Positions 8,947 to 50,161 of a DNA stretch of 64,000 nt are shown here, in pieces. The position numbers were made by a program, and so were the translations under genes. The notes beneath the pieces are model-generated. The model ran no database searches. It was not told where the DNA came from and was given only the letters and a program-made list of their open reading frames with translations. Within the stretch, counting starts at the first letter, position 1. Each line of letters begins with the position of its first letter. Origin of the DNA: Alphaproteobacteria bacterium (lineage in GTDB: Bacteria; Pseudomonadota; Alphaproteobacteria; MPNO01; UBA830); the NCBI GenBank assembly GCA_964291215.2, contig OZ219790.1, positions 1,600,001 to 1,664,000 of the forward strand, in the 5' to 3' direction.

Positions 8947-9567
8947 ATGTCCGACCCCGTCACGCTGATGGTCTTTACCGACTACGTCTGACCCTGGTGC
9001 TACCTCGGCACCGTGCGTGTCGACCAACTCCGCAAGGCCTACGACATCGCCGTCGAGCTCGTGCATTTCCCGCTGCATCCGGACACACCGAAAGAGGGGC
9101 GCGAGATGGCCGGGTTCTACGCCGCCCGCGGCCTCGATCCCGACAGGATGTACCGGGAGATGAAGGCGCGCATGGACGCCGAGGGCCTTCCCTACAGCCG
9201 GCGCACCCATACCTACAACAGCCGTCTCGCCCAGGAGCTCGGCAAGTGGGCCGACACCATTGAGGACGGCGAACCTCTCCATGACGCGCTCTATCGCGCC
9301 TATTTCGTGGACGCGCGGAACATCGGCGATACCGAGGTGCTGCTCGATCTCGTGGACGGACTCGGACTGCCGGCCGACCAGGCACGCGAGGTCATCGCCA
9401 CACGCGCTTTCAGTGATGCCGTCGACGAGGACTGGGCGCGGTCCCGCAGCTACGGCGTGACCGGGGTGCCAACCTATGTCGTCGGCGGCTACGGTGTGGT
9501 CGGCGCCCAGCCCTACGAGGCGCTCGTACAGCTCGTACAGCAGGCCGGCGGCACGGCGCGAAACTGA
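8947..9567 (+). CDS. DsbA/FrnE-family thioredoxin-fold protein with in-frame TGA at the first active-site Cys (candidate selenoprotein, UPWC)
   Basis: GGAG RBS, then MSDPVTLMVFTDYV-TGA(8989-8991)-PWCY; later FPLHP, GVTGVPTY and GAQPYE motifs. Confidence 0.8.
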
Positions 9568-9576
9568 CGGCCCGAC

Positions 9577-11639
9577 ATGCCGTTCGCCGCGGCAACAACC
9601 GGAGACGCGATCGCCGCGTTCGAGCGCGACGGCGTAGCGCTGGTCCGGCGAGCCTTCACCGACCGGTGGCTCGGCATGCTCGACGAGGCCGTGGACGCAG
9701 CGCTCGCAACGCCGAGCCCGCTGTCGCGCGAATACGCACCCACAGGCCGCGGCCACTTCTTTGCCGACCATCACATGAGTCAGAACAGCGAGGACTTCCA
9801 GCAGTTCATCGAGGAGTCGCCGGCAGCCGCGATTCCGCCGGGGTACTGTAACTTGATGTCTGGAAATTTGTCTGAGGTTTGCGCTTTGAGGCGTTTCACT
9901 GGGGGGCTAGCCCCCCCAGTGAAACGCGGCGCCATCGTGCTATCCCATGGAGTTGTAAAACCTTCATGGAGGAAGCGAATGGACCTGCGACACACTACGA
10001 CGATTGAGGCCGTTTTGGAACATCTGATCGCAAACGGAGCAACGGATCTGGGGCGGGTCTTTGGCCAGCTCTTCGAGCTTGCGATGCATATCGAGCGCGA
10101 GCAGTACTTGAAAGCGGGCCACCGGACACCGGAGCGACAGGGCTATGCCAACGGCTACAAACGGATCGACACCCCCACTGTTGCCGTTCAGGTGCCAAAG
10201 ACGGCCGGTCACGGGGACGACCCCCCAGTCGCTTGAACGCGGCCAGCGATCTTCTCGCGCCGTAGCCGAGATGTACATCAAGGGTGTTTCCACACGGCAG
10301 GATGTAATGCGCGAGTTCGGGAGCCTGTCCTCTTCTCAGGTCAGCCGGGCCACCAGGTTGCTCGATGAAGAACTCGCCGCGCAACCGGCCCCTGATGAAA
10401 TACCTGGATGCGCGCTACGAAAAAGCCCGCCATGACGGCGTTGTGCGCGATGTCGCAGTGCTCTCGGCCATCGGAATAGGGGCTGCAGGCACGTTCTGGG
10501 GCTCTCTGTGGCGCTCTCCGAGGCCGAGGTCCATTGGAGAGCCTTCCTGGAAAGCTTGCTAGCCCTGCATGGTACGACCTTCATCGTCTCGGATGCCGGG
10601 CTGAAAGCGGCACGACGCGCGGTGCTGGGCGCGGCGACATGGCAGCGCTGCCAGTTCCACCTGGCGCAAAACGCCGTGCACCGAACAACGACATCAGGAA
10701 ACGTATTGGAAAACAGCTCAGAGCCACGCCTCCTCACTCCAAACCGCCGAGGCTGAACTGGGCGCCCTCGTGGCCAGCGACAAGCATCCAGGCTTCCTGG
10801 CTGGAAAACAATGCGGGGCTCGCTGTCTTCACCTTGCCCGATGCTCACCACAAGCGTATGCGAACCTCGAACGGCATCGAGCGACCGATCCAGCAAGAGC
10901 TCAAGCGGCGCATCTCCAAAGTCAGGGTCTTTCCGAACCTCGCCTCGTTGGAGCGCCTCTCAACCGCGGTCCTCATCGACGAAAAATGGGAAACCGAAAC
11001 CAAGATCAAATGGGAACAGCTCGATCAGCTTCACGACAATTTCCAGACATCAGGTTGCGTAATCATCGCCGCCACGCTGCTCCGGGCAAACCGGCTCTGG
11101 TTGGTCGACGAGCACCTGCTGGTGAAGGAGCCGGGAACCGATGTCCCGACGCACTGGCATCACGACCTCCCCTACTACGACATTTCCCGGGACGGCTTCG
11201 CGTCCCTCTGGATCCCGCTCGACATGGTCACCGCAACATCGGGTGCGATGAAATTCGTGAAGGGATCGCACCGGTGGAACAAGTTGTTCAGGCCGATAGG
11301 GATCGGCACCGGACTTGAGGCCGAGGGCGCCGACAGGTTCGACGGCCCGGCGCCGGAAATCGACGCCAGTCCCGGCGACTACGATGTCGAGATCTTCAAA
11401 ATGGACCGCGGCGACGCGCTGTTCTTCCAGACGGCGACGCTGCACGCCGCCAAGCCCAACCGGACCGCCGCCGCGCACTATCGCTGCGCTATGCCAGCGA
11501 GGCTGCGCGCTGGCAGCCTCGCACCTACGTTCCATCGCGGCCCGACAAGCCCGACCTTGTCCCCGGCTCCGTTCTCGGCGATAACCTCTATCCGGTGGTT
11601 TGGCCGCGCAGGAACGCGGCGCAGCCTGACGAGGTCTGA
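9577..11639 (+). pseudogene. Phytanoyl-CoA dioxygenase (PhyH)-family gene split by IS256, plus one small deletion near 11468
   Basis: N-half AFERDGVALVR...SPAAA ends about 9830; C-half IAATLL...KEPG...WHHD...GSHRW...TLHAA resumes at 11065; RRRALSLRY tail lies in a shifted frame. Confidence 0.85.
9841..11064 (+). mobile_element. Degenerate IS256-family element, copy 1
   Basis: Fragments AEMYIKGVSTR, LDARYEK, WQRCQFH, RTSNGIER, ELKRR..VRVFPN; imperfect TIRs sharing TGATGTCTGGAAATT; palindrome 9891-9927. Confidence 0.9.
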
Positions 11640-11641
11640 CG

Positions 11642-12073
11642 ATGCAGGTTCACACGATACTCCGGGAAAAGGGTACCGACATCCACACCATCGGCCCCGG
11701 CGCCACCATCGCGGAGGCCGCGGTCCGCCTCAGGGATCTCGGGATCGGCGCCCTGATCGTGTCCGAGGACGGAGCCGCGATCACCGGCATCATCTCCGAG
11801 CGGGACATCGTCTATGGCCTCGCCGAGCACGGGGGCGGATTCCTCGACCTCGCGGTCAGGAACGCGATGACGGCCGATGTCGTCACCTGCTCCCCCGAAG
11901 ACACCGGGCGCGTCGTGCTCGGACGCATGACCGAGCACCGCATGCGCCATGTCCCCGTCGTCGAGGCCGGTCGGCTCGTCGGTCTGGTGAGCATCGGAGA
12001 CGTCGTGAAGAGCCGCCTCCAGGAAATCATGTCGGAGGCCAACGCCCTCAGGGACTATATCGCGGGCGCGTGA
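11642..12073 (+). CDS. CBS-domain protein
   Basis: IGALIV, GIISERDIV, MRHVPVV and GLVSIGDVVK tandem CBS motifs. Confidence 0.9.
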   Translation: MQVHTILREKGTDIHTIGPGATIAEAAVRLRDLGIGALIVSEDGAAITGIISERDIVYGLAEHGGGFLDLAVRNAMTADVVTCSPEDTGRVVLGRMTEHRMRHVPVVEAGRLVGLVSIGDVVKSRLQEIMSEANALRDYIAGA

Positions 12074-13870: not shown

Positions 13871-14545
13871 TCAATCCCAGCGCCAAGAGCAGGCATCGAC
13901 CTGCCCGAACGCGCCCTGTTGCCATTGGTCAGCGGTGCGCTCTTCGAGGATTTCGGGCCGATCGACGAACTGTCGTACGCTGGTCGGACCGAAATCATCC
14001 AGACGGCGAAATTTCTCCGCAATTTGGAGATAGCCGGTCCTCGCCGTATTGAACGCGAGGAGTGGTTCCGCTGCCGCGACGAGGGCATCGACGCCGCCCG
14101 GGAAGTTGCGGATGCTGAAGTAGATGTCGTAGGCGTCCTTCTGCTTGCGGCGGTTGGCGATGGCATAGCCCGTCATGGCTAGCAGCGCGGGAATGGACGC
14201 GACGGCGATGTGCACGCGGTTTGCGCCGCCGTCGGGCATGTCGCGATCGATGGCAACGAGCTGGTAGAACCGCAAGGTGAAATCCACGCCATCGGCGCGC
14301 TGAACCGCGAAGTCCGCCACGAGCGGAGGCGCGTTCTTCGCGATCTTGGCGTCGCGCGGCATCAGGAAGTCGACGATGATGTCGATGTCGGCTCCGCCAT
14401 CGCAGGCGGGCACGGTACGCACGATTTGGAAGCGGGGCCGATTCTCGGACTGGTGGTAGCGCTGCCTCGAGGGGGACTCGACAAGCCGGGCGTATTCGCC
14501 GTCACCCAAGGCTTCGGCATCGAGACTGAGATCCACGCCCAAGGT
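13871..14545 (-). pseudogene. Nucleotidyltransferase (AbiEii/AbiGii-toxin-like), 5'-truncated by an IS remnant
   Basis: VDLSLD, IIVDFLMP, ASIPALLAM and KQKDAYDIY motifs; N-terminus replaced by a transposon end. Confidence 0.6.
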
Positions 14546-14549
14546 TCCA

Positions 14550-14985
14550 ACATCAGATGTCCTGACCTCGGGTCCGATTTTTCCAATCAGAGTGATGCTT
14601 CCGGGCCGGGTTTGCGTGCGTTGTCTGGCAGTTCGTAGATCATGCGGAGGCCGGTTCCGGGGAAGACCGTGCGCATCCGGTTGAGTTCGTCGAGCAGTCC
14701 GGCGATGTCAGCGTCGCGCGCGTTGCTGGCGGTGCCGAGGATGCGCACCCGCAGGACGCCGTTCTCCGGGTCGGGGATGATGTCGACGTCCGACTGGAAC
14801 AGTTCGGCGAGAGGGCGTCGCGAACGCTGCTTTGCGCCCTGCGCCGCGGCGACGGCGGACATCATCCGGGTCTCGGCGCGGTAGGCGATCATGCGAACGA
14901 TGTCGAGCAGCAGCCTCTCGCTAGAGGGCAGGGCGTCGAGCCTCTCGTCGAGCTCGGCCACCGTGACATGCTTCGGGGTTTCTGA
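14550..14985 (-). mobile_element. Transposase C-terminal remnant with element end
   Basis: DIVRMIAYRAET...LLDELNRMRTVFPGTGLRMIYEL resembles the C-terminus of putative DDE transposases. Confidence 0.55.
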
Positions 14986-14999
14986 ACGCCGGACCTTGA

Positions 15000-15046
15000 C
15001 CCAAGTTGGCACTTTTTGCGACCTGGAATTTTTATCACGTACCCCG
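15000..15046 (+). mobile_element. IS1634-type left-end remnant
   Basis: CCCAAGTTGGCACTTTTTGCG is identical to the end at 59640 that precedes an IS1634 transposase. Confidence 0.6.
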
Positions 15047-17798
15047 TTCCATAGTGAAGTGCAACACATGATGGGCTGTGACCATGTGTTTTAAGACGCA
15101 TGATGTTGCGGAGCGGTAGCGGCGAGAGTTCCTGTACAAGATGAAGGGAGCTTGTTCATGTCCAAAGGCTACCGTCACCTACGAAGAGCGATGCCAGATT
15201 GAGGCGTTACAGAAAAGCGGTCTTTCACAAGGTGCGCTTGCTCGGCAGCTGGGCCGATCAACAATTTTTCGGGAGATCAAGCGTAACACCGGGGGACGGG
15301 GTTACCGTCACAAGCAGGCGCAAAGGATGGCAGAAACGCAGGGCAGCCTCGTCTGTTTCCTGGCGGTTGACGCCTCGAGTTGAAGCTCAGAAAAAGCTGC
15401 GGGAGGGCCCCGAGCAGCGGCCGTTTTCGACTGGAAGGCCGTGAACGGATCCATGATCGCCGAAGATCGGAGAGCCGGGGGTGTCTTGTGGAAGAAGCTT
15501 CGGCGGCGCGGCAAGAAGCCGAACTGGAAGGGCGGATACCATTCCGGCCGGGTCCTGTGGACATTTCCGAGCGCCCTGCGGAGGCAAAGGAACGGGTCGG
15601 CGACTGGGAGCCATCATCGGCGAAGCTCACAGTGGAGCTGTCGTGTCGCTCGTACCACGAAATACACCTTGCTGGGTGGACAGAAAGACACGGTCGGTTC
15701 GGTCATGATCCGCCTGCTCGGCTCTGGTGCGCTATTGGTCCACACAATCACGTCAGACAACGGAGTTCGCAGACCACAGGCGTGTCGCACTTGACGCAGA
15801 TTTCTTCTTCGCTTGTAACTGCTCACCCCCCTGGTTCCGGCTTGATGTCGGGGTAGAGCAACGAACGGGTTTTCGTGGAGATTTGACACTGCAGGCCGAT
15901 TCGCTTAGTGGTGGTCATCGAGAACGACGGGGACCGCCAGTGGGCTACTTTGGATCGAAGGCGACGAGCGGGCTGTGCCAGCTGCTTCCGGGGCTCCAGC
16001 CCCCGCATGATCTGTATGTGGAAACGCATCTCGGAAGCGGCGCGTTGATGAAGCGCAAGGCCGGGTGATGGCGACGGGCGGCGCGCGAGGAGTTCGAAGC
16101 GGCCAAGACCGCGGCGCTGCGTGCGGCCGGCAAGGTGCCGAAAGATGTCGATGCCGTGATCCGCGTCTTCGTCATCCTGCTCGATATCCTCATCGTCGTC
16201 CTTCTGGAGAAGACCACGCACGAGCCGGAACTCCGGTCTGCTGCCGTCACAGACGGACAAGAGCGTGCCGGGAGCAACGGCAAGGGCCCGAAGCCGAACC
16301 GGCGGATGGGCGACAACCTGCGCAAGACCATCGTCGAGGAGACGGTCGCGGCCTGCGACGCCTGCGGCGCTGGCATCGACGGCCCCATCGATCGGGAGCG
16401 CCGCACGACATCGTGTTCGAGGTCGTCGAGCGCCGCGCCGAGATCAAGGAATGCCCGAAGTGCAAGGGCCGGTTCCCCGAAAACATCCCGTGCAGTACGG
16501 CATCGGCATCCAGGCCCTCGTTATCAACCTGCTGGTCGCCCAGATGCTGTCCCTGCGCCGTGCCGTCGCGCTCATGCAGGCGATCTCCGGCATCAAGCTC
16601 TCCGAGGCAACCTGCCTCGGCTATGCTTTCACGATGTGTCATGGAAGGAGGCCGCCGTGGCGCACTTCCTGCAACGCCCGATGTCGACGATTTCGGATCA
16701 ACGGCAAGTGGCTCCATGTCGTCACCGACGGAACCCTGACGTGTAAGTTCCCGCACCGCAAGCGCGGCCGGGAGGCAAGAGATCGGCCCGTGCTACAAGG
16801 GCGTTCTGACTGCTGGGCCTCGTACATGGGCTATGACCAGTGTAGCCACCAGCTGTGCGGTAGCCACCTGCTGCGCGAACTGACCTTTGTCGTCGAGGCT
16901 ACCGCGCGACTGATGAAGAGCCTGCTCCGCGAGATCTGCCACAAGGTCAACAAGAGCGCATCCAAAACCCTGAACGAGGCCGACCTCCGGGCCGTGCGCA
17001 AGCGCTACCGTACCATCAGGGTGCCAGGGAACTGCCCGACATCCCGCCGAAAGGAAAACGTGGACGCAAGTCCGACGCGCACAACCTGCACGAACGTCTC
17101 GTGAAACACGAAAACCTGCGCTTCACAGACGACCCCGATGTCAGCTTCACCAACAATGCCGGAGAACAGAAGATCAGGATGGCAAAGCTCAAGGTGTCCG
17201 GATGCTTCCGCTCCACGCGAAAGCATGGTGCCGGGGCTCAAGCTACCTCACCTCCATGGCGGCACTCGGCTACAACCCACTCGTCGCCACCCAGATCGCC
17301 CTCGACGGAAAAGCCGCAGACATCATCAACGAGCACTACGACCAATCAGAACCCAATTAGGGGTGAGTAGATACCTTCGCTTTTCCATTCCCGGGAACGC
17401 GGCTTGAATGAGCACACCAACGGCCTGGTGCGGGAGTACTTCCCGAAGGGCACGGACTTTCGCGCGACATGCAACGAAGATGTTCAGAAGGTGCAGGATC
17501 GGCTCAACACTCGGAAAGTCATGGGATCGCCGACGGAGGTAATCTTGAAGTGAAACCGCCCTGACCATCTGCGTTCCGCAGCCGCAACGTGCAGCAGGGT
17601 CCATGCCGCGCGACGGCGAAATAGTGGCTTGAAGCCGACAAAGGCGTTGCATAAGCTCGATGTTGAAGGAACTGAAGCTGTTCCCAGGCGGAATCGAGAG
17701 GGGCAGAGGGGAAAAATTTGCACAACATCCGGCCCTCATCTCCGTTCGGGCTACGCCCTCACTGCGATGAGGGCCGGATGTTGCACTTCAGACTGGAA
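15047..17798 (+). mobile_element. Degenerate IS30-family element interrupted by IS66-B copy 1
   Basis: TIRs TTCCAtagTGAAGTGCAACA (15047) and TGTTGCACTTCAgacTGGAA (ends 17798); fragments YEERCQI, REIKRN, GDWE, TITSDNG, ERGLNEHTNGLVREYFPKGTDF. Confidence 0.85.
15815..17374 (+). mobile_element. IS66-family element type B, copy 1 (truncated MTase plus degenerate transposase)
   Basis: Ends GTAACTGCTCACCCC / GGGGTGAGTAGATAC; 8-bp TSD CTTCGCTT; HQLCGSHLLREL and FTNNAGEQKIRMAK motifs. Confidence 0.92.
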
Positions 17799-17871
17799 GT
17801 GGGGATTTAAAAATCTCCTCGCACCAACCCGCGCCCCCGCAACACCCAGATGCTGTCTTGAAAAACCAAAC

Positions 17872-19370
17872 GTATCTACTCACCCCTAGTTGGGTTCTGA
17901 TTGGCCATAGTGCTCGTTGATGATGTCTGCGGCTTTTCCGTCGAGGGCGATCTGGGTGGCGACGAGTGGGTTGTAGCCGAGTGCCGCCATGGAGGTGAGG
18001 TAGCTTGGCACCATGCTTTTGCGTGGAGCGGAAGCATCCGGACACCTTGAGCTTGACCTTTGCCATCCTGATCTTCTGTTCTCCAGCATTGTTGGTGAAG
18101 CTGACGTCGGGGTTGTCTATGAAGCGCAGGTTTTCGTGTTTCACGAGACGTTCGTGCAGGTTGTGCGCGTCGGACTTGCGTCCATGTTTTCCTTTCGTCG
18201 GGATATCGGGCAGTTCCCTGGCGCCCTGATGGTGCGGTAGCGCTTGCGCCCGGCGTCGTTCAGGGTCTTGGATGCGCTCTTGTTGACCTTGTGGCAGGGA
18301 GCAGGCTCTTCATAAGTCGCGCGGTAGCCTCGACGACAAAGGTCAGTTCGCGCAGCAGGTGGCTACCGCACAGCTGGTGGCTACACTGGCCCATGTACGA
18401 GGCCCAGGACGCCCTTGTAGCACGGGCCGATCTCTTGCCCGCGCTTGCGGTGCGGGAACTTGCACGTCAGGGTCCCACGACATGAAGCCACTTGCTGTTG
18501 ATCCGGTCTCGTCGACATCGGGCGTTGCAGGAGGTGCGCCACGGCGGCCTCCTCCCATGACGCATCGTGAAAGCATAGCCGAGGCCTCGGAGAGCTTGAT
18601 GCCGGAGATCGCCTGCACGAGCGCGACGGCGCAGGGACAGCATCTGGGCGACCAGCAGGTTGATGACGAGGGCCTGAATGCCGTACTGCACGGGATGTTG
18701 TCGGGGAACCGGCCCTTGGTCCGGGCCTTGCACTTCGGGCATTCCTTGATCTCGGCGCGGCGCTCGACAACCTCGAACACGATGTCATAGAGGACGCGGC
18801 GCTCCTGATCGACGGGGCCGTCGATGTCGGCGCCGCAGGCGTCGCAGGCCGCGACCGTTTCCTCGACGATGGTCTTGCGCAGGTTGTCGCCCATCTGCCG
18901 GTTCGGCTTCGGGCCCTTGCCGTTGCTTCCGGCACGCTCTTGTCCGTCTGTGACGGCGGCAGACCGGAGTTCCGGCTCGTGCGTGGTCTTCTCCAGAAGG
19001 ACGACGATGAGGATGTCGAGCAGGAGGACGCGGATCACGGCCTCTTCCGCCACCTTGCCGGCAGCGCCGCGGTCTTGGCCGCTTCGAACTCCTCGCGCGC
19101 CGCGTTGACCGTCGCCATCACCCGGCCTTGCGCTTCATCAGCGCGCCGCCTCCGAGATGCGTTTCCACATACAGATCATGCGGGGGCTGGAGCCCCGGAA
19201 GCAGCTGGCACAGCCCGCTCGTCGCCTTCGATCCAAAGTAGCCCACTGGCGGTCCCCGTCGTTCTCGATGACCACCACTAAGCGAATCGGCATGCAGTGT
19301 CAAATCTCCACGAAAACCCGTTCGTTGCTCTACCCCGACATCAAGCCGAAACCAGGGGGTGAGCAGTTAC
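17872..19370 (-). mobile_element. IS66-family element type B, copy 2
   Basis: Same ends as copy 1, inverted; 8-bp TSD AACCAAAC; sits in a fragment homologous to 29190-29260. Confidence 0.92.
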
Positions 19371-19423
19371 AACCAAACAAAATTTAGCGTGAGATCGTTC
19401 TGTCGTCCGCCAGCGACCGCATG

Positions 19424-19617
19424 CACGACGATCCCATGCTAATTCGGAGACGCGAAATCCGAATGCGTTGGGGCTCGGCTCATCACAGATCGCCTTCTTG
19501 ATCGCAATTTTCGTGCCAAAAAGGCCCCATCAAGCCTTGGCGGCACGATTGCAGCGCGACGCAAACTGAAAAAAATCTCGCCAGTCGTCGCCGGATTAGC
19601 AGCGTGGGATCACCGTG
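19424..19617. mobile_element. 194-bp MITE, copy 1
   Basis: TIRs CACGACGATCCCATGCTAAT / ATTAGCAGCGTGGGATCACCGTG; perfect 9-bp TSD GACCGCATG; second copy at 49345-49537. Confidence 0.85.
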
Positions 19618-49889: not shown

Positions 49890-50161
49890 TTAGTGTGAAC
49901 TTCCTAGGCTACCTCCACCAAATCCTGATCCTGGCTGAATGTCACGGCCACATCGAGAGCGCCGTTGCGCGCGATTCGCACCATGTCGAGACCAATCCGA
50001 AGGTCTGTTTCCTTCTCGCGCTGTGCCGGCACACCATGCGTCGTACCGTCCGGAAGCGGGACCCGCTCGGAGCGCGGTTTCCGGGAGGTCACGAGAATCC
50101 CGACGCGGCTCATTGCGGTCAGGTACCGCGCCCGGCACGCCGGATCTTTCCTGGCGTCGGG
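49890..50161 (-). pseudogene. NYN-domain (PIN-like) protein fragment
   Basis: REKETDLRIGLDMV...DVAVTFSQDQDL resembles the NYN EKGVD...SGDSD motifs. Confidence 0.6.

Follow-up and report, generated by a model that had tools for sequence, protein, structure and literature searches.

The IS256-family element that interrupts a PhyH gene in the window, by which we mean the whole 64,000-nt stretch of DNA analyzed, is best explained as a recent, non-autonomous member of its family. Its deletions would then be family alleles, carried in when the element was moved in trans or gained by gene conversion, and not local damage; we assign this reading a probability of roughly 0.78. A preliminary description, made from the sequence alone, had used the shredded element and its almost intact host gene as an internal control, proposing either that the element was mobilized in trans after being damaged or that deletions are directed at repeated DNA and stop near the element boundary. 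The contrast is real (18 deletion blocks in the element and one 10-nt deletion in the gene), but it falls short of a clean control, given the youth of the insertion and the status of the deletions as family alleles. Mobilization in trans after damage is now the best-supported alternative: the site is empty in sister strains, 18 of 18 deletions are alleles of the family, all 49 full-length copies already carry deletions, and no reading frame of the family is intact.

The element and its host gene

The features of the locus, all within the window, are as follows.

9577..9841, plus strand: N-terminal part of the PhyH gene, 88 codons, colinear with its ortholog in the same-genus genome G001, an open frame of 282 aa
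9832..9839: degenerate target duplication on the left side, ATTCCGCC (from the sequence, the G001 alignment and the empty-site joint of 9831 to 11065 in the contigs of runs X13, X14 and X2)
9842..11064, plus strand: defective IS256-family element, 1,223 bp, its start possibly at 9840; 49 full-length and many partial copies genome-wide
9842-9868 and 11038-11064: terminal inverted repeats of the element (from the sequence)
9897..9921, plus strand: palindrome of a G run, CTAG and a C run in the 5' untranslated part; the lengths of the G and C runs vary among copies
9979..11030, plus strand: remnant of the transposase reading frame, split over several frames (from the family alignment and the frames)
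After 10122, 10157, 10222, 10258, 10298, 10378, 10391, 10402 and 10484: deletions of 5 to 12 nt in the element
After 10563, 10592, 10677, 10725, 10776, 10796, 10814, 11004 and 11025: deletions of 5 to 12 nt in the element, continued
11065..11073: target duplication on the right side, 9 bp, ATCGCCGCC (from the sequence, the G001 alignment and the run contigs)
11065..11639, plus strand: C-terminal part of the PhyH gene, with a Pfam PhyH match; original stop at 11637-11639

The C-terminal piece of the host gene matches PF05721, the phytanoyl-CoA dioxygenase family, with an E value of 2.2e-21 and 77.6 bits (cut-off, 22); the N-terminal 88 aa, searched alone, gave no Pfam match. Both pieces align end to end with the G001 ortholog at ~93% DNA identity, and the sole internal indel over the 840 nt is a 10-nt deletion after 11465 that shifts the frame. 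The single small deletion that had been noticed near 11468, in some 830 nt of PhyH, is thus confirmed. The missing nucleotides, CGCCGCCACG, lie between CGCCGCC repeats and are present in G001, X13, X14, and X2.

The inserted element has the hallmarks of the IS256 family, namely, a PF00872 transposase, terminal inverted repeats, and a 9-bp target duplication. The repeats are 27 bp long and imperfect, with 21 of 27 positions identical (counted by inspection) and the core TGATGTCTGGAAATT. The 9 bp that flank the element on both sides at the window locus occur once, as ATCGCCGCC, in the empty sites of the G001 alignment and the run contigs; relative to the right copy, one base is missing from the left copy and another is altered. 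The IS256/Mutator transposase profile matches the element in pieces only (PF00872 at window positions 10451-10687, model positions 183-265, E value of 3.3e-12), and the one uninterrupted transposase frame that characterizes an autonomous element is absent from this copy.

When the window copy was compared with an alignment of the 49 full-length copies, 21 gaps were found, of which 18 are internal blocks and 3 are changes of length in the G/C-run hairpin, in good agreement with the earlier estimate of about 20 deletions. The internal blocks are 5, 6, 7, 8, and 12 nt long; not all are multiples of three, and the transposase frame is broken. Each of the 18 deletions is common to between 11 and 46 of the 48 other full-length copies, relative to which private gaps and private insertions are both absent from the window copy and private substitutions number only two. 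A consensus of the longest alleles, in which every block is kept, gives an almost uninterrupted translation that runs colinear with an intact IS256-family protein encoded in the same genome. The blocks were therefore present in the ancestral element, and each gap records a deletion. Since all 18 are variants found in other copies, they probably came to this copy by descent or by copying and did not arise at the PhyH locus.

The age of the insertion was assessed by comparing window positions 9300-11900 with contigs of four public runs (X12, X13, X14, and X2). In X13 and X14, two runs of the study that also yielded X12, each with 11 to 12 differences over ~1,300 nt of flank, position 9831 is joined directly to 11065, skipping 1,233 nt. 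X2, a relative ~6% diverged, has the same empty site and skips 1,234 nt, and in G001 the site lacks the element and PhyH is whole. The contigs of X12 do not differ from the window over either junction, nor does the N-terminal part of PhyH in them, and this run contains every word sampled from the flank. The genome was probably assembled from X12, which, as the probable source sample, does not support the assembly independently. The insertion is thus polymorphic among close strains, being present in X12 and the window and absent from X13, X14, X2, and G001. Since X13 and X14 have the empty site and keep the 10 nt, the insertion and the PhyH deletion are both younger than the split of very close strains. 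PhyH is consequently a poor control for slow erosion, having been a pseudogene only briefly; under the favored explanation, it is the youth of the insertion, and the short time since inactivation, that leave the host gene looking untouched. Some runs labeled as sponge or marine metagenome, X2 among them, contain small shares of a unique stretch.

Two other remnants in the window had been described as single copy and in frame. That at 13871-14545 is single copy and open, with a 1-nt difference from G001 at 13889 and a weak, sub-threshold likeness to AbiEii. The remnant at 49890-50161, by contrast, is not single copy: it has nine other near-full-length matches of 258 to 276 nt at 95 to 98% identity, one of which is gapped.

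The degraded family and the source of its transposase

A BLAST search of the element against its own genome (6.15 Mb in two contigs) returned 49 end-to-end copies and many fragments. The family comprises more than 100 degraded IS256 copies, and the 15-nt core of the inverted repeat occurs 219 times in the genome. The 49 aligned copies range from 1,193 to 1,323 bp and differ mainly by about two dozen discrete blocks of 5 to 8 nt, with a mode of 6 nt, together with one block of 12 nt; individual blocks are absent from as few as 2 and as many as 47 copies. With 24 deletions scored, every full-length copy carries between 3 and 23. The preliminary description had raised the prospect of many identical copies deleted in advance; pre-deleted copies are indeed found throughout the genome, but none are identical, and the nearest neighbor of a copy lies 14 to 47 events away.

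A search for an intact IS256 copy that could supply transposase had also been proposed. PF00872 has 151 matches in the genome, only 2 of which span the whole model in a single frame, and none of the 151 is a single-frame, full-length match from the degraded family. The two intact genes are IS256-like but belong to another lineage, with 36% identity (77 of 213 residues) and unrelated ends, on which grounds they were rejected as a cross-mobilizing source. The least-broken copy of the degraded family was likewise rejected, its frame being split into 195 aa and 224 aa, and the stretch presumed to hold the first catalytic aspartate, which we placed by eye, is out of frame. The family's reconstructed transposase is a single frame of ~390 to 420 aa. 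No matching source was found in the assembly, and DNA searches of 30 other genomes, all relatives, gave no match to the degraded lineage. PF00872 itself is scarce in relatives, with eight matches in each of two of the four same-genus genomes. We infer that the donor, whichever copy it was, was already defective, because all 49 copies carry deletions and no family frame is intact. For lack of an intact family frame, the transposase would have come from elsewhere, perhaps from a copy that has since disappeared or from other cells in the population.

The variants that are private to single copies bear on when the deletions were made. Only 1 of ~30 deletion alleles of 5 to 8 nt is private, while 165 of 320 single nucleotide polymorphism (SNP) sites are singletons; therefore, resident copies accumulate point mutations and gain almost no new deletions of this size. 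The number of deletions per copy was not correlated with the number of private substitutions (rho of 0.19 and P of 0.19; 49 copies). With rough inputs (private substitutions of ~0.25% per copy, neutral lineage divergence of ~10%, and ~1 to 2 deletions/kb in neutral unique DNA), about two private deletions would be expected in the 49 copies, and one was observed. Resident copies are not struck faster than other DNA.

Allele mosaics and a genome-wide deletion signature

The alleles of the family are combined almost freely. In four-gamete tests on the deletion sites, all four combinations were present in 204 of 276 pairs. For 50 common base variants and 19 deletions, the mean r2 was 0.17 at distances below 25 nt and 0.03 to 0.05 beyond (permutation null, 0.021), so that linkage is lost over about 25 to 50 nt. 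The copies show no tree structure and no near-identical pair, even though the median number of private substitutions per copy is only ~3. The copy closest to that in the window differs from it by 18 mismatches and 5 gap events, and the window copy resolves into 12 segments, each matched exactly in another copy. Shared alleles, mosaic combinations, and linkage that decays with distance together form the pattern by which ectopic gene conversion is recognized, and exchange among copies appears to generate the mosaic. The same lack of any two close copies was seen in 30 high-copy families, with IS families of 100 to 230 copies.

A young insertion that has no close donor can be read in three ways: reshuffling is faster than point mutation, donors are lost systematically, or alleles are misassigned to copies by the assembly. 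Reshuffling could proceed by ectopic conversion or by recombination during transposition. Three duplicated segments mix low-copy and high-copy parts, and in these the high-copy parts differ 5 to 16 times more, mostly by alleles known elsewhere. This excess fits exchange in place; it could also reflect independent insertions into the different copies. Old IS copies inside two-copy duplications, which would provide a clean case of conversion in place, were sought genome-wide, with zero candidates.

Deletions of the same size class are not confined to the IS256 family. Over 183,072 aligned columns of unique DNA at 7.06% mismatches, 32 blocks of 5 to 7 nt are missing from the window genome (G000) and none are missing from G001; 2 of the 32 are 5 nt long, 21 are 6 nt, and 9 are 7 nt. 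For one of these events, polarity could be assigned: two residues of a helix motif, PLYWxI, are retained in all seven outgroups and lost in G000, and the event is therefore a deletion in the G000 lineage. Two further events at protein ends were dropped from the polarity check. The X12 contigs agree without a single difference over 16.2 kb of such unique DNA, including its deletions. In the one event listed at L060:1035, 6 nt are absent from X12, X13, and X14 and present in X2. A division of unique DNA into coding and noncoding parts by a GC3 rule was discarded, as the mask covered ~58% of the sequence.

Within repeats, which make up one third of the genome, a peak of 5- to 7-nt gaps was found in all repeat families of the window and in each of the 30 high-copy seeds across the genome. 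By comparison, only four such gaps were counted in 322 kb of alignments between repeats at least 99.5% alike; among these near-clean young repeats is a 2,357-bp IS66-family element with eight full-length and two partial copies. The size distribution is sharp: it peaks at 6 nt, lengths of 5 and 7 nt are common, deletions of 1 to 4 nt or of at least 8 nt are few, and there is a sevenfold fall from 7 to 8 nt. Microhomology of at least 1 nt was found at 66% of 1,947 deletion alleles, and microhomology of at least 2 nt was found at 40%. Position-specific base frequencies around 429 deletion sites revealed no PAM-like or other motif, the borders being slightly G+C rich, and guide- or motif-directed cutting was rejected on this basis. 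An Argonaute combined with end joining was also rejected, since the genome has no match to Piwi (PF02171) or Ku (PF02735). The 5- to 7-nt deletions are a mutational signature of the whole lineage.

The density of these deletions differs between the two kinds of DNA. On a rough reading, old IS families carry ~15 to 17 deletions/kb per copy, compared with ~1 to 2/kb in the most diverged unique stretches, and the excess in the IS families resides in shared alleles, mostly of high frequency. A tenfold or so excess needs a further cause. Loops of at least 5 nt escape MutS; it is conceivable that this escape explains the lower size bound, and an exchange biased toward the shorter allele could, again as a conjecture, explain both the excess in IS families and the skew toward high frequencies. 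Loss of mismatch repair was rejected as the cause of the scrambling: mutS (981 aa) and mutL (670 aa) are open frames without stops.

Competing explanations and known systems

In the favored explanation, a donor IS256 copy would have been damaged before it transposed, with transposase supplied in trans from outside the degraded family, by a copy since lost or by other cells of the population. The damaged copy would then have inserted in PhyH recently with its family deletion alleles aboard; alternatively or additionally, it may have received such alleles from sister copies through gene conversion. A host gene that had been a pseudogene for only a short time would be little changed. The main gap in this account is the matching transposase, which is not in the assembly. 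The want of a near-identical donor and the 12-segment tiling also count against it: with no close donor, a simple faithful copy of a resident element is not seen, and either the donor is gone or the copy has been reshuffled. We consider a second course of events unlikely. A less damaged copy could have landed in PhyH and had its deletions written in place by ectopic gene conversion, which requires homology and would thus halt at the element boundary. Alleles near linkage equilibrium beyond 25 nt, a mosaic window copy without a close donor, at least 14 events between any two of the 49 copies despite so few private substitutions, and duplicated segments whose high-copy parts differ mainly by alleles seen elsewhere are all consistent with it. 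However, every copy carries at least 3 of the 24 deletions and an interrupted frame, which means that the donor would have been damaged anyway; around nine conversions in the time of two private substitutions imply a high rate; and the two-copy duplications offered no clean test case. Conversion in place differs from the favored explanation in timing only, and both can hold.

Two further proposals fare considerably worse. That deletions are directed at repeated DNA, as the preliminary description had suggested, would call for a repeat-sensing machinery, a bacterial analogue of repeat-induced point mutation (RIP), that makes 5- to 7-nt deletions de novo in repeats and spares the unique PhyH flanks. 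The 5- to 7-nt peak in 30 of 30 high-copy seeds, a density in IS copies exceeding that of unique DNA as a whole about a hundredfold, and damage that stops at the element boundary at the PhyH locus all point that way. The proposal is nevertheless largely refuted, and we find it barely credible: unique DNA is also affected (32 events against 0), repeats at least 99.5% alike, the IS66 family included, are nearly free of such gaps, the window copy has no private deletion and the family one private allele of this class, no motif accompanies the deletion sites, and the genome lacks Piwi and Ku domains. Deletions in unique DNA and clean young repeats therefore do not support a machinery that senses repetition. 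A weaker form of the idea survives, in which alleles are exchanged only among homologous copies and so halt at the element boundary. It is also very improbable that the deletions, or the copy-by-copy mosaic, are artifacts of assembly or polishing in a genome so rich in repeats. The independence of alleles beyond 25 nt, and 30 families without a near-identical pair, would be expected if variants had been assigned to copies at random, and the comparison rests on contigs, with no read spanning the window copy. On the other hand, deleted and undeleted alleles both occur in read-derived contigs, though not every allele in each run: as inserted letters, CCTGAT and GCTATC occur in X12 and zero times in X13 or X14; at loose ends, ATGACC, GCATAC, and GACTGA occur in X12 and X13, and GACTGA, GCTATC, and GCCCGA occur in X14. 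The X12 contigs match exactly at both junctions and over the 16.2 kb of unique DNA, and the 6 nt missing at L060:1035 are missing from three runs and present in the fourth. The contig evidence speaks against artifactual deletions; a wrong assignment of real alleles to copies is compatible with it, although we hold this, too, to be very improbable.

The favored explanation can be set beside several known systems. Like other members of the IS256 family, the element has inverted repeats of ~27 bp, a 9-bp target duplication, a PF00872 match, and, when reconstructed, a single transposase frame of the expected length; unlike them, its frame is broken by 18 deletions, and its lineage has no intact member in the genome and no DNA match in 30 relatives. 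Non-autonomous, MITE-like derivatives likewise have conserved ends and a target duplication, encode no functional transposase, and insert at sites that are occupied in some close strains and empty in others. Such families usually consist of one or a few deletion derivatives in many copies, while here each copy has its own combination of ~24 small deletions, no two copies are close, and a trans-acting source was not found in the assembly. Concerted evolution by ectopic gene conversion similarly yields shared polymorphisms in all combinations and linkage that falls with distance. Usual conversion tracts are much longer than ~25 to 50 nt, but linkage in this family is gone within that distance, and the family is not homogenized, with 2 to 4% mismatches retained. 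In fungi, RIP converts C to T in duplicated sequences of any kind. The two have in common a heavy damage that falls mainly on repeats; in contrast to RIP, however, the lesions here are deletions, they strike unique DNA as well as repeats, and young duplicates are spared. Degraded IS copies have been described in endosymbionts such as Wolbachia (PMC3205602). For small deletions in bacterial pseudogenes, Danneels et al. 2018 (PMC6054270) report that 43% lie between microhomologies of 2 to 11 nt and that the sizes are distributed as a power law biased toward multiples of three. Their microhomology-flanked deletions, in the decaying DNA of a host-associated bacterium, resemble the present ones; the power law with its bias to multiples of three differs from the mode at 6 nt, with 5 and 7 nt common, seen here.

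The PhyH locus offers nothing out of the ordinary, being a young insertion of a dead element; what is unusual is the background to it, a deletion signature found across the genome and families with a mosaic structure. Full-text literature searches listed no paper on a 5- to 7-nt deletion signature or on eroded mosaic IS families of this kind. As a tentative idea, which we regard as more doubtful than probable, a lineage-specific process may remove 6 ± 1 nt genome-wide and a biased exchange between copies may drive these deletions to high frequency in the hundreds of dead IS copies, amounting to a self-propagating erosion with no described bacterial counterpart. The paradox of a shredded IS in an intact-looking host gene dissolves, since the insertion is young and the erosion came with the history of its family. 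What stands out are three features of the genome: a sharply sized 5- to 7-nt signature, IS families of 100 to 230 copies without close pairs, and a fine-scale scrambling of alleles. If the signature reflects a defined defect in repair or recombination, this bacterium would be a natural system for the erosion of dead mobile DNA in bacteria, and, if that defect is real, it would provide an in vivo view of loops too large for mismatch repair.

The insertion site and its strain variants

The defective IS256-family copy that splits the PhyH gene carries a palindrome 5' of its transposase start, and the lengths of the G-run and the C-run of this palindrome differ between IS256 copies.

Window 9897-9921: perfect palindrome, CACT-G(n)-CTAG-C(n)-AGTG

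The left copy of the target duplication (window 9832-9841) has two changes in 9 nt, while the remainder of PhyH has none relative to run X12, the public run that is probably the source sample; the left junction may have been made imprecisely. Run X14, from a sister strain, diverges from the window by about 0.9% in the PhyH region (window 9300-11900) but from the window's own genome, G000, by about 0.08% over 10.4 kb of a unique stretch (L060; G000:C1:750500-767000). These values suggest either that close strains have recombined or that X14 contains more than one strain.

Other repeats and remnants

The segment at window 49890-50161, which the preliminary description took to be single copy, proved to be a repeat of about ten copies at 95-98% identity, only one of which has a gap; its likeness to an NYN domain is weak and sub-threshold. 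Nested and strongly eroded elements, comprising Transposase_29 and IS66 remnants, form a cluster at window 14587-15069 and 15000-19600, and the syntenic stretch of the same-genus genome, G001, is without it. Of 73 long window frames scanned, 6 retain a Pfam match at E 1e-5.

Deletions of 5-7 nt

An IS66-family element of G000 (L070) is present in eight full-length and two partial copies at 99.2-100% identity, from all of which 5-7-nt deletions are absent. One copy adjoins the least-deleted IS256 copy, and another has inserted into an IS256 copy.

G000:C1:332259-334615 and nine other places: IS66-family element, 2,357 bp
Window 12322 and 24610: examples of the deletions in unique DNA

Across 183 kb of unique DNA compared, 5-7-nt blocks are absent 32 times in G000 and never in G001, and deletions of 8-14 nt are likewise commoner in G000 (18 versus 4). 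An EamA-type transporter gene, otherwise open, has two 6-nt deletions spaced 46 nt apart (G000:C1:751501-751541; about 1002-1042 of L060), and several other unique-DNA deletions of the 5-7-nt class are also paired, at spacings of 14-46 nt. Loss of 5-7-nt blocks throughout the genome is a lineage-specific signature.
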